The notes under the pieces are model-generated. The model searched no databases. It worked only from the letters and a program-made list of their open reading frames with translations, and was not told where the DNA came from. The position numbers and the translations under genes were made by a program. A DNA stretch of 64,000 nt, taken from contig OX597815.1 of assembly GCA_951406725.2 (NCBI GenBank), forward strand, positions 109,802,001 to 109,866,000, in the 5' to 3' direction. Below are positions 10,221 through 40,164 of this stretch, piece after piece (position 1 is the stretch's first letter; each line of letters starts with the position of its first letter). This DNA comes from Octopus vulgaris. Taxonomy: Eukaryota.

Positions 10221-10410
10221 AAAGTTAATCCAAACAAGAAAACAAAAAGACAACAACGCGAGGATGTGGAACAAATAAAGTATTAGTGGACGCTCAGGAA
10301 AGAAGGGAAAAAGGAGGGTATGACGTTTCGAGCGGAGCTCTTCGTCGGAAACATAGGAGAAAGAAAGATCCCGATGTGGGAGGACAGAGGGAAAAAAATT
10401 GACGGCAGGA
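10221..10410 (-). mobile_element. Short non-coding repeat carrying a minimal hammerhead-like motif (family H1, copy 1)
   Basis: Near-identical to 20502-20690 and 39955-40164; minus 10318-10352 reads GUUU-CCGACGA-A-GAGCUCCGCUC-GAAA-CGUC-AUAC; abuts (TA)n. Confidence 0.8.
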
Positions 10411-13400
10411 TTGTTTTATTGCCGCCAAACAAATCATCACACAAGACGTTGGTCGTTTTTTTACCAAACTGCCGCTCAATGAGATTAGTCCCAAGATCAG
10501 ATTGTTAGGTAGAAGCTTCTTAGCCACACAGATACGTTTGCATCTTCTTCACGTTGACAACACTGAGAAAACACGTATGAAAATTCTGAAAAGAAAATTG
10601 CCTATCATCAAATTTCGCTAATATAAAAATAAAGAACAGCTTGATGCCACCAAACCATAGAACCATAGCGAAGCTGTGCCACGTTGCAAGAGCAAAAAGA
10701 GATGGCATGAAACTCGTTGCGCACGATAAAATGCCTAGAGGCAACATTTGTAGAAACAGAAGCTATTTGAATATTTATTAGTGCTGAAGAAATAAGAAAA
10801 TGAACACCTCGTGACACACTTTCAAAATGCCAGGGGACCTCTTCTTTCAAACATAGCCAGCTGTGACAGCGAAGGGGAAGATAGATAGTAGGAAAAATGT
10901 CAATAGTATCAACTTTAGTTCGACCAGCCGTTGCAAAACCCGTCGACTTCGATCACTAAATCCCGAAAGCCGAATCTTTTCTCTTCTCGTGACGACACAT
11001 TATCTTGTAATGGAAGCCGGAAGTGAAGCAATCATTATGAGGGAAAAGTGGTGGGGACAGAAGATCCAGCAGAGAAGGCAGAAATGGCACGACTTAAATA
11101 CATGCATGTCAAAAGGACGATGACAACGACACTGACGACATGAAATCTACAAACGTTTGATATAGAAACTTCTTCCTCATAAAAAAAAACTATCACAAAT
11201 TTGATGCAACGCTTAGAGCCTTAAAGTACTGAGTAACGAAAATCAAATAAGGTTAGAATATAGGGGACATGCACCAGCGATACAGCTTTGGTAAACATAA
11301 TTCTAGATTATTAATAAGAGCTACAGTAGGCTTACCTGGGGACAGAAGGTTTTTCAAAAATATTTTTCTCTCGTTCTACAGGTAAGTTGTTAATGGCTAC
11401 TTTACATGCACCAAATCCATTTATGAATTCTGCCAGAACACCTGAAATATGGGCTGCTCTAATCTGACCTAATCGGTAGGCTCTCACCCGTGACAGAGTG
11501 AGGAAAATCTAAAGACCTCTATATGTATTAAATGTTTTTTATACATATCATTTTATATTATATTTTTATTTTATTTTTTATCGTATGCCATTATTTTTAA
11601 ATAAATTTTCAAAGTGGCTTCGGTGTACAACTTTCCTGACTCAGATAATCGATTTTATATAACTTAATCTTCTTCATCCCGACTTGTTTCTGTAAGCACT
11701 TATGATTTTCACGTTTTAATGTAAATGTATGTATAAATGAAAACTAAATGTAATTACCATCAGTTGCTAATTGTAATTTGACGGAAACGTTAGAGCACCG
11801 GACAAAATGCTACGCGGCATTTGTTCCGATTCTTACTCTTCCTACACACGCAAACATACGCACGCGCCCCAGGATGAATTAATCGGTTATAAAGTTAGCT
11901 ACATGACGCAAATGCTTAAAGTTCTGTGCATCTCACTTATAAAAGTATATATATTATAAAGTTAACTTTGATCGGGAGTAATTTTCAATTGACATTTGAG
12001 CAATTCTTTCAGTGCTGAATTCTTTCAGTGTCAGTAAATACTCGATTGTTATTCTTAAAATTGCTTTAATGGAAATACCATACATATAAACGCAAACATA
12101 CACACATGGCCTTAGACAAAGACACTGCGAAATTTAAATATGAGTGCGTAGTTTTTAACCCGTGTCAGCCCCAATTAAGCAGGCAAACTATCAAAGATAT
12201 GCTAGCCTTTATCATCCCTCACATCTACTCTACCTTATCCAATGTATGGACCTCGTCTTAAGAGGTTAGGGATTAATCTGAGGGAATTTTTCTCCTATTT
12301 CTAACAGACTGAGTGACCATATAAAGACTCGTTCATTGGCGTGTTTATTTCTTATGTTCCCGAGGGCTGGTAAGTGGTTTGATTGGCAGTGTCGAGATTA
12401 CCATTACACCCATACTTACATATATGTGTTCGGATTTATAAACACAGAAGCACAAAAAAAAAACAAAAAAAACAAGAAGCACAAAAAAAAAGACAAAAAC
12501 AAGAAACACAGAAATAGCCTACAAAAATCAAGCACATTAAGAAAAATAATCAGAAGCAGCCAAACCCGACAGAAAAATAACGAGGTGTTTGTGTCGGAAG
12601 GGGTTGTTGTAAGACCGCCTCTTTTTGGTAAGGTGAGAACGGGTTACCAATAATTCCAATAAATTCGAAAAGGCAGCCAAAATCTCAGTGTCATTTTACT
12701 CACCACCTTGCCAAGTAATTGCTCGTGGTTGGTTGATTATCTGGATTCATATTTGAATTGCACCATTTTCCAAGATAACGTATCAAAGGTGTTGTTGTTG
12801 CCATCCGCCTTCATATGTTTGTGCGCGCACAAAAATGTGTGTGTGAGAGGGAGAGAAAGAGAGAAAAAGAGGGAGAGAGAGAGAGAAAGAGAGAAAAAGG
12901 GAGAGAGAGAGAGAGAAAGAGAGAAAGAGAAAGAGAGGGAGAAGCTGGAGAAAATGGATGTGTGCGTATGTATAGGTAATTTATATATATATATAAATAT
13001 ATGTATATATATATATATATATATATATATATATATATATATATATAATATATCTTTGTGTGTATACATATACTTGTGTGTGTGCGTGTGTATGTGTGCG
13101 TGCGTGTGTGTGTGCATATGTGTGTGTGTGTGTGTGTTTTTAGTAAAACAACCACTCTTCATGGTCGCCATATGATGCTGCTTTGCCTCCAACAGATATT
13201 AGTGTTTCTTATCTCTTTGTACAGATGGTAGCTGTATGTTTTGAAGAATGATAATAAAAAAAGAGAGGAAAATACCACTCCAACAGCACGTTCTCTGCTT
13301 TGGTATTTTCTAATTTCCCTTTCAGGTGCTTCTTTTATGTATTATTTTTCTATATATATTGTGTGTGTTTACGTATGTCTCTTCTATTTTTTAAATATTA

Positions 13401-13579
13401 TAAATCTTCCACTGAGGCGGAAGCCGGTTTCCAACAAAGATACAAGGCTCCATCTTTGAGATGAAGTTAACAGATAAATTCACATTTGGAACTTGAGAAA
13501 AGTCTTGCATATTTTTACTGTTCCACTCACAGATTACAATTGTAACGTACCAGTTAGCCAGTCAGTTTCTCTTTCTGAA

Positions 13580-14880
13580 AATTAAAAAGGAGGACTGGGC
13601 ATGCCGTGGTTGATGATGCGCAGACACGCGCTGAGACTGCGACATCTCAGGCTCTTCGTAGACGACGGTGAACAGGTGTGGTCGTTGTTTGTGAGGCACG
13701 CTTTCCCGCAGCTCGTCTCCATGACCAAACTGCAGTCGTGGATCAAAAAGAGGCCGAGGAAGGGCGAATGGCACCCCGAGTGTCGCGTTGCTCTCAAGCA
13801 ACTCTGCCGTCCCGGGGCGACCTTGAGTGACTCCATCACAACCCAAGCATTCTGTAGGGGATTAGTGGAGTGGAGGTACGACGAAGAGCTCGGGGCGAAC
13901 CTGGACGTCGACGAGGAATATCTGACCCGCCTGTCCGGGACGACTTTCGGGCTAGGGCCCATGGACAACTTCCAGAGATCCCTGGCCTGGCAGTGCTACC
14001 GAGAAGCGCTACCCGTTCGGGATAAGCTCTACAGACACGGCTCGAGAAACACGGGGCCGACCTGCCCGAGATGCGGTCAGAGTGACGAAACCGTTCTGCA
14101 CGCACTCGTGCAGTGTCCAACAATTTCCGACCTGTGGGCTTATGTCGAACAACTGCTGTCACGTGTGGGACGAGTCGGTTTATCAGCTGAGTCTATCGTC
14201 AATATTGTCACGCCTCCTTCCTTCAAACGGGAAGGAAGAGCTATTTTCCTCAACCTTGTGGCTATGGCGAAAGAATGTATCTGGTAGACGCGTCTGAAAG
14301 GATTGGAGACAAACACTTTCCTCTCTGGTCAATCTCTCATCAACTTCTTCAAGTATCACTTGAAGAGGTAAGTGAGAGTAGAGAGGCAAGTTTTGTCTAG
14401 CGAATGTTTTAAAAAAAGATGGGTGAATGTAGCAAGGATGGCACGTATGAATGACAAGCCACCTTGAGCATAATCCTATGAACCCAGAAATTGAAAACAG
14501 AGGGTTACTCACTTGCAAACAAATGTGGTAACATATAACAATATTAACCGAGGTCACCGTGGTCTTTTTCGTAGGCTTTTCTTCCCACGGATAAACCTTA
14601 TCTGCTTCTCCTTTTACACCGTACACCTTGACACTGTGATACACGATCCCTATTGATCCTTTTTTTCCTCTCCCCCTTTTTTCCTCTTTTTTCTTCTTTT
14701 TTCTTTTTTTTTTTTTTGCTTTTGTTTGTTTTCCTTTTTCTTCTTTTTTCCCTTTTACGATCCCTTTTGATCGAAAACCTACGCCACTTTTTTTTCTTTC
14801 TTTTTTTTCATCCCCTAAAAGAAAAGCTCTACCTTGTAACTTGTCCCATCTGTGTGCAGCCCTGTGTGGCTAATAAAGAA
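13580..14880 (+). mobile_element. 5'-truncated Tx1/L1-clade LINE (ORF2 C-terminus plus 3' UTR)
   Basis: GGLGMP motif and zf-RVT-type region LAWQCYREALPVRDKL...CPRCGQSDETVLHALVQCP in ORF 13601..14287; the frame continues through stops to ~14470; T-rich 3' UTR ends in AATAAA before (ATCT)n. Confidence 0.88.
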
Positions 14881-39129: not shown

Positions 39130-39362
39130 CTTTTCAGAGCAATACGTTGGTAAGTCCGCTTCCCGAATTTCGTGGAGTATATATTGCCGTCTCGACAGGG
39201 GTGCTGGTCCGTCGCAGGATTACTAATTATTTTTTATTAGCCAAGTGGGCTGGAGCAACATGAAGTTAAGTGTTTTACTCAAGAACATAACATAACGCCT
39301 GGATAGGAATCGAAACCAGCCTGACGAGCATGGGTGCAATATCTTTGACCATCAAGCCACTA
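39130..39362 (-). mobile_element. SINE family C
   Basis: CTGGAGCAACATGAAGTTAAGTGTTTTACTCAAGAACA...GGAATCGAAACC matches 59440-59510. Confidence 0.75.
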
Positions 39363-39954
39363 TCCTTTCTAGTTCCCTTTTTCTCCTCACCGTTCTCTAA
39401 CCGTCTCTCTCTCTCCCCTCTTTCTCTTTTTCTCTCCCTCGTTGCTCGCACGAGTCCATCGTCCATCTTTCTTTTCCTCATGTGACCATCTCTCTTTCTT
39501 GCACGGCCTTTCTAAGAACTGGACGTCTCCAAACTCTCTCTTTTATCATTGGTCATTCTTTGTATTGACCCGTTTTTTTCTCTCGTTATTTGAGTATTTA
39601 ACTCATTTGTTTACGTATTTCATGCTGTTTACTCTGGTGACGTCCTGCACCCATATATGCACACACACACACACACACACACACACACACACATATATAT
39701 ATATATATATATATATGTATGTATGTATATATATATATATATATGTATGTGTATATATATATATATGTATGTATGTGTATATATATATATATATATATAT
39801 ATATATATATTGTCCTTACCTTCGAACGCGGAGCAGATGAGACAGGGACAACTAATACATGTATGTATATATATATGTATATATATATGTATATATATAT
39901 ATATATATATATATATATATATATATATATATATATATATATATATATATATAT

Positions 39955-40164
39955 AAAGTTAATCCAAACAAGAAAACACAAAAAACACAACAACACGAGG
40001 ACGTGGAACAAATATAGTATTATTGGACGCTCAGGAAAGAAGGGAAGAAGGAGGGTTTAACGTTTCGAGCGGAGCTCTTCGTCGGAAACATAGGAGAAGG
40101 AAAGATCCCGAGAAGGGAAGACAGAGGAAAAAAATCGCCATCGGTACACACGAGGTCACATTTT
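39955..40164 (-). mobile_element. Family H1, copy 3 (best-preserved hammerhead-like motif at 40055-40089)
   Basis: Minus strand: GUUU-CCGACGA-A-GAGC UCC GCUC-GAAA-CGUU^-AAAC; embedded in (TA)n on both sides. Confidence 0.82.

Follow-up and report, generated by a model that had tools for sequence, protein, structure and literature searches.

The terminal repeats of Penelope-like elements (PLEs) carry a minimal hammerhead ribozyme that has no loop 3, a palindromic 15.2-16.2 segment, an extra base after position 9 and a short helix I, and that occurs mostly as a single motif in truncated elements, with weak cleavage in dimers only (Cervera & de la Peña, 2014, PMC4209133). Here we describe a repeat with such a motif in 64,000 nt of Octopus vulgaris DNA (contig OX597815.1, positions 109,802,001 to 109,866,000; this whole stretch is called the window below), which is AT-rich and rich in microsatellites. 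Three copies of the repeat share the hammerhead core CCGACGA, in which the usual U at position 4 is replaced by C (U4C; the two states are referred to as U4 and C4). We consider it rather probable that the repeat is the terminal repeat (pLTR) from the 3' end of a Neptune-type PLE, present as 5'-truncated copies in (TA)n, whose minimal hammerhead has C4 as its family state and would cut weakly at best.

Several other described systems resemble the repeat. Neptune-clade PLEs combine a reverse transcriptase (RT), a CX2-5CxxC linker and, at the C-terminus, a GIY-YIG domain (Craig et al., 2021, PMC8557442), and PLEs with this linker are listed as preferring (TA)n as their target (PMC8557442). Like the window repeat, they target (TA)n, carry their hammerhead close to the 3' end and occur in truncated copies; the difference is that no open reading frame (ORF) was detected beside the window copies, whereas coral-type loci with the same core do follow such an ORF. 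In an anole PLE, the start of reverse transcription lies 111-118 nt into the ORF and the cut site at +26, a spacing from hammerhead cut to priming similar to that of the window repeat; the hammerhead is protein-assisted there, and its catalytic mutants insert normally in vitro (PMC11167929). The animal retrozymes without long terminal repeats (Cervera & de la Peña, 2020, PMC7229834; Li et al., 2026, preprint) are likewise non-coding, about 200 nt long, PLE-related and equipped with a type I hammerhead. However, they are head-to-tail arrays of 150-400-nt monomers with canonical hammerheads (PMC7229834) and give circular RNAs, while the copies described here are dispersed, carry a minimal motif and vary at their 5' ends. 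Retrozymes have been derived from PLE terminal repeats in a preprint (10.64898/2026.07.22.740005) in which one of nine dimers tested was cleaved. The identical core substitution is known from a natural viroid hammerhead (Ambros & Flores, 1998, cited in PMC3088659), where infectivity is maintained although U4C markedly reduces activity in vitro. The viroid case is a single variant with full tertiary contacts, as opposed to the family-wide state of a genomic minimal motif. Penelope-like families have been reported from Octopus vulgaris, with hammerheads unmentioned in the accessible text (PMC13282606).

The repeat, its hammerhead and its family state

All three copies were found where the original prediction had placed them; they lie on the minus strand, dispersed 10-19 kb apart. 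They are designated copies 10221 (10222..10400), 20502 (20503..20690) and 39955 (39956..40166). Copies 10221 and 39955 are 90.6% identical over 180 nt, and copy 20502 is 80-81% identical to either of them over about 153 nt. Their 3' ends coincide, each of the three entering (TA)n at 100-104 nt beyond the predicted cut site; in copy 10221 the end enters (TA)n/(TG)n, copy 20502 has (TA)n-rich DNA on either side, and copy 39955 has (TA)n on either side. The 5' ends vary (about 10400, 20690 and 40166), copy 39955 having the longest 5' extent, and contig placement at copy 10221 showed a loose end running on past 10399. Copy lengths cluster at 180-210 nt. The three window copies contain no partial tandem or inverted pLTR structures.

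The minimal type I hammerhead occupies 10316..10354 in copy 10221 (C3 at 10348, C4 at 10347, predicted cut between 10322 and 10321), 20596..20634 in copy 20502 (C3 at 20628, C4 at 20627) and 40053..40091 in copy 39955 (C3 at 40085, C4 at 40084), in each case on the minus strand. The sequence features that had been predicted were confirmed: the core is CCGACGA in all three copies, an additional A and then GAAA-CG-U-H follow it in each, and helix II is GAGC/GCUC in copies 10221 and 39955 and damaged in copy 20502, with an A-A mismatch and a U-G pair. H is C in copies 10221 and 20502 and U in copy 39955. Helix I has all four pairs in copy 39955 only, the other two copies having three of four and a U-U mismatch. 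Loop 3 is absent and the palindromic 15.2-16.2 segment is ACGU in all copies; as had been foreseen, helix III cannot form within one copy, and the motif is predicted to work only as a dimer. The extra nucleotide between 9 and 10.1 and the G10.1-C11.1 pair are also present. With a loop 2 of 3 nt, a helix I of 4 bp and no loop 3, the motif does not have the architecture of the canonical contact between loops 1 and 2.

The original prediction had presented dimer folding, the extra A and a helix III without loop as non-canonical surprises, but the minimal hammerhead published for PLE terminal repeats is defined by all of these traits. The metazoan PLE motifs share the architecture of the window motif point for point, including G10.1-C11.1 and occurrence as scattered single motifs, and an Acropora digitifera Neptune element in Fig. 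S3 of PMC4209133 has a near-identical core string. The difference lies at position 4, which is U in every readable row of Fig. S3 and in the printed consensus CUGANGAH. Because U4 is C while all other core positions match, the window motif is classed as a variant of the minimal hammerhead and not as a strict member. Cephalopods are absent from the accessible listing in that source.

A minimal-hammerhead descriptor that allows Y at position 4 matched two of the three copies (copy 20502 fails at helix II) and had no match in 200 dinucleotide shuffles of the window. Rfam gave no hammerhead for copy 39955 (two chance matches, E 4.4-4.6), nor was a hammerhead among the 150 of 304 matches listed for the whole window. 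In the folding prediction for a monomer, G5-G8 pairs with the CGUY end in an inactive form, and this helix is predicted to be 0.5-0.9 kcal/mol stronger with U4 than with C4 (copies 39955 and 10221); the weaker inactive fold is only a hint that C4 may be tolerated or useful. The element as a whole is not unusually structured (fold stability z of +0.5 and +0.7).

The state of the wider family was assessed by placing four public runs on 10222-11700 (likeness 80, share 4, a 4% threshold). Two of these were contig runs, X9 (guessed to be RNA, n = 1951 placed) and X3 (guessed to be DNA, n = 5984 placed). No row with another letter appeared in either of them at 10323-10361, a segment that includes position 4 (10347). 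U4 therefore stays below 4% of the depth in two contig runs, which makes C4 the family state and, together with its presence in three of three copies, supports the earlier claim that C4 was already in the amplifying master. This is no proof of purifying selection: neutral changes distributed over three letters could also stay below 4%. The rows at 10322 (61-82%) and 10320 (77-95%) showed that the family majority reads as copy 39955 and has all 4 bp of helix I. Copies 10221 and 20502 thus represent a minor subfamily with the U-U mismatch in helix I; copy 10221 has C at H17 and U at helix I position 1.2.

The summed depth over the repeat was 0.9-3.0 million. The unique flank beside copy 10221, a single contig in run X3 that ends at 10402, had a depth of 47.2, giving a ratio of about 19,000-63,000. 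The repeat is thus abundant, as had been claimed, at roughly 10^4-10^5 copies, the depth ratio being an order of magnitude and not a true copy number.

A fourth, diverged relative lies at 57690..57775 on the minus strand, with 74-77% identity over 61-88 nt. Its core is UUGACGA (U4, with C3 changed to U), helix II is intact and helix I is lost. Inverted beside it, a stop-ridden frame at 57790-58233 on the plus strand resembles by eye a decayed piece of a PLE RT, a likeness that found no support from profile search, BLASTP, Pfam or homolog search.

The same core in coral-type loci

Neither metagenome nor viral contigs contained a match to the strict motif pattern. A relaxed pattern gave at least 120 loci in metagenome contigs, among them 90 low-GC and 30 high-GC loci. 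The 30 high-GC loci were dropped as chance coding matches after their context was inspected; 42 matches of the relaxed pattern in prokaryote genomes were set aside as chance coding matches with their context uninspected. Among the matches listed, to which the counts of core states and of inverted copies below also refer, the 90 low-GC loci had the core CU in 42 cases, CC in 36 and another state in 12. Removal of duplicates left 80, of which 69 belong to one family, and within this family the state of position 4 follows the subfamilies. Subfamily A has 27 C4 loci, no U4 and five other states, subfamilies B and C have no C4, 28 U4 and two others, and the seven loci outside the subfamilies comprise five C4, one U4 and one other. 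These proportions are not genome frequencies, because the search pattern fixed helix II as GAGC/GCUC. In a tree of 57 rows from which position 4 was excluded, three changes between C4 and U4 were needed versus 19.4 for shuffled labels, and none of 500 shuffles reached so low a number; the tree is weakly supported and built from few columns. CpG decay was considered as the source of the split and ruled out by the 27 C4 and zero U4 loci of subfamily A. Separate C4 and U4 subfamilies of coral-type Neptune elements are represented by L009/L056, L066, L008, L037, L109, L110 and other loci.

In 11 of the 90 low-GC loci (about nine distinct), a C-terminal piece of a PLE protein lies on the same strand and stops about 90-110 nt upstream from the core. 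These include C4 loci, namely L009/L056 (one locus) and L066. Full-length relatives of the protein combine RVT_1 and GIY-YIG with a Cys linker of the Neptune type, and the two named protein matches are from corals (Pocillopora and Acropora). Most C4 loci (31 of 36) match the long locus L037 for at most 53 nt upstream of the core, which makes them as short as the window copies. An inverted partial hammerhead copy lies at most 120 nt upstream in 20 of the 90 low-GC loci.

The original prediction would have fallen if the repeat were simply the pLTR of a catalogued PLE. In kind this is probably the case, since the same core follows the ends of Neptune-type endonuclease genes in the coral-type loci, but it is not so by name. 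Four diagnostic strings from the 3' end of the repeat were absent from the searched text of one PLE consensus supplement, a search limited by line wraps and incomplete text. The octopus Naiad elements (Naiad_Obim and Naiad_Ovul) were covered by the same search with the same limits, and the displayed 3' end of Naiad_Obim differs from that of the repeat.

Origin of the repeat

If the repeat is the pLTR of a Neptune-type PLE, the PLE literature suggests how its copies would arise. An RT/GIY-YIG protein would nick AT-rich DNA and prime reverse transcription at a point some 100 nt downstream of where the hammerhead cuts, which would give the copies their common 3' end. Reverse transcription would mostly halt early, so that most insertions would keep only the 180-210-nt non-coding end. 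The hammerhead has the minimal PLE architecture, in which helix III does not form alone but, in a tandem transcript, the ACGU segments of two copies could pair. Since insertion would not require cleavage by the hammerhead, C4, present in the master, could have become fixed and reached about 10^4-10^5 copies by amplification. That nearly all copies share U4C, and that a coral element family has it as well, likely means that efficient self-cutting is not needed for the spread of these elements, and the simplest reading is that a weakened ribozyme is carried along since cleavage is not limiting.

A number of observations weigh against this origin. The autonomous parent of the window repeat is inferred and was not seen, and profile search and tblastn detected no PLE coding sequence beside the window copies; both were coral-based, so that a distant cephalopod protein could escape them. 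The coral family matches the window repeat over only about 30 nt of core. Because the similarity is confined to this core, the connection between octopus and coral consists of motif and layout and not of shared flanks, and C4 probably arose independently in the two lineages. Read depth peaks over the core and is lower at the 3' end, which is not a simple 5'-truncation pattern; divergence of the reference copy and a core shared with other families may explain this. The raw genomic runs X23 and X24 gave only 3 and 12 reads, far below what the abundance predicts, and yielded no allele frequencies. No compensatory change was seen within the family in the contig runs. Across families, both sides of helix I change in four of four pairs (13 hand-picked motifs), but with borderline significance, as 19 of 500 shuffles reach this value; only 69% of the helix I cells pair, and in helix II the search pattern allowed no variation.

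Some of these points would suit a dedicated short non-autonomous element, a SINE-like derivative of a PLE terminal repeat (SINE, short interspersed element) slightly longer than 200 nt, that a PLE protein would move in trans and that would carry the hammerhead as an inherited passenger. We regard this as possible but would not favour it. Not one of the three copies extends into coding sequence, their lengths are clustered, the abundance is very high, and non-autonomous PLE derivatives with shared 3' ends have been described (PMC8557442; bioRxiv 10.64898/2026.07.22.740005). Against it, the three 5' ends differ and the loose end continues past 10399, and neither a tRNA-like head nor A and B boxes or another Pol III box was found on four copies by ARAGORN and a box scan (if present, a head could be located past the points of truncation). 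Moreover, the coral family is equally rich in short copies, yet these are demonstrably truncated PLEs.

A different account of position 4 would have U4C as a recurrent working state of the minimal PLE hammerhead, fixed independently here and in a coral Neptune subfamily. Together with C7 and the CGUY end it would weaken the inactive monomer fold, and the PLE protein would assist cleavage. This account is doubtful.

The original prediction had placed the repeat in a retrozyme-like family. Of this, the non-coding nature and the length of about 200 nt stood, and the remainder is weakly supported: the copies are dispersed, with a shared 3' end at (TA)n and variable 5' ends, and the reading is weak because no head-to-tail monomers were seen. 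It is unlikely, in our estimation, that the C4 hammerhead cleaves as a dimer and gives rise to circular monomer RNAs. Such activity would agree with the perfect 4-bp helix I and the helix II retained by the family majority, with the shorter inactive helix predicted for C4 in copies 39955 and 10221, and with the viroid, in which the activity left by U4C suffices for infectivity. The repeat is also deeply covered in the presumed RNA run X9 while the unique flank is not, but contigs reveal neither the strand, the ends nor the level of an RNA. No joint between whole head-to-tail monomers (a go-back joint) occurred in the four runs, a test limited by short contigs; the one go-back joint found, with two reads in X24, consisted of an incomplete copy stacked across (TA)n. 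The metazoan retrozymes on record form tandem arrays with canonical hammerheads (PMC7229834), mutants of the CUGA turn had low activity in deep mutagenesis (PMC9901934), and the fold of the element is not unusually stable.

That the hammerhead likeness is a decayed relic or chance, with C4 as random damage in old copies, is very improbable: the missing Rfam match, the loss of C3 and helix I in the fourth relative and the lack of compensatory change within the family would fit it, but the absence of descriptor matches in the shuffled windows, the constancy of C4 across copies and read depth, and the way coral C4 tracks subfamily markers on the tree largely refute chance likeness, and a hammerhead dead since the master would belong within the truncated-PLE origin.

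Other repeats of the window and the meaning of position 4

The window contains further traces of mobile elements. A broken PLE-like ORF in three frames lies at 47213-48474 on the minus strand, within 46500-48680, and shows by eye a Cys linker and a YVG motif; it has no Pfam match, a weak atlas lead to GIY-YIG and one homolog. It is framed by inverted arms at 46905-47091 and 48372-48561 (79% identity), each running into a canonical CUGACGA hammerhead-like motif, at 46537 on the minus strand and 48651 on the plus strand. This ORF was considered as a relative of the hammerhead repeat and rejected, as the two share no sequence. Its 3' arm is interrupted by a SINE-like repeat (46558-46894) that belongs to an abundant dispersed family with 72-91% identity, the other members being at 56410-56803, 37311-37773, 15062-15247, 54210-54452 and 55928-56078. 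A second dispersed family occurs at 21661-22070 (a tandem pair), 43302-43469, 55520-55645 and 17184-17351, and showed no hammerhead on inspection. A fragment of a non-LTR retrotransposon with a zf-RVT domain (E 2.4e-08) was found at 13586-14287 on the plus strand. Broken frames at 61020-61891 (minus strand) and 27054-27710 (plus strand) look by eye like a mariner transposase and a non-LTR C-terminus, respectively; the four pieces tested had no Pfam match at E 0.01. A degenerate minisatellite with a 23/46-nt period occupies 42326-42838.

The element type and the loop-less dimer architecture of the hammerhead repeat are already known. In contrast, neither a family-wide U4C in a genomic PLE hammerhead nor its recurrence in coral Neptune elements was found in the literature searched, outside which lie Lünse et al. 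(2017), on dimer-cleaving PLE variants, and several supplements. A descriptor with Y at position 4, CYGANGA, has already been used in a deep-sea virome study (PMC13481778).

The hammerhead is nearly universal in the canonical clades of PLEs, yet its cleavage was dispensable for insertion in vitro. If U4C were a working state, descriptors restricted to U4 would have overlooked active ribozymes by the tens of thousands in each genome, and matched C4 and U4 subfamilies would offer a natural test of what the PLE hammerhead does. If C4 is crippling, a family of about 10^4-10^5 copies, with coral sister subfamilies that differ at position 4, would be genomic evidence that the hammerhead is dispensable; if it is not, the functional hammerhead core would be widened.

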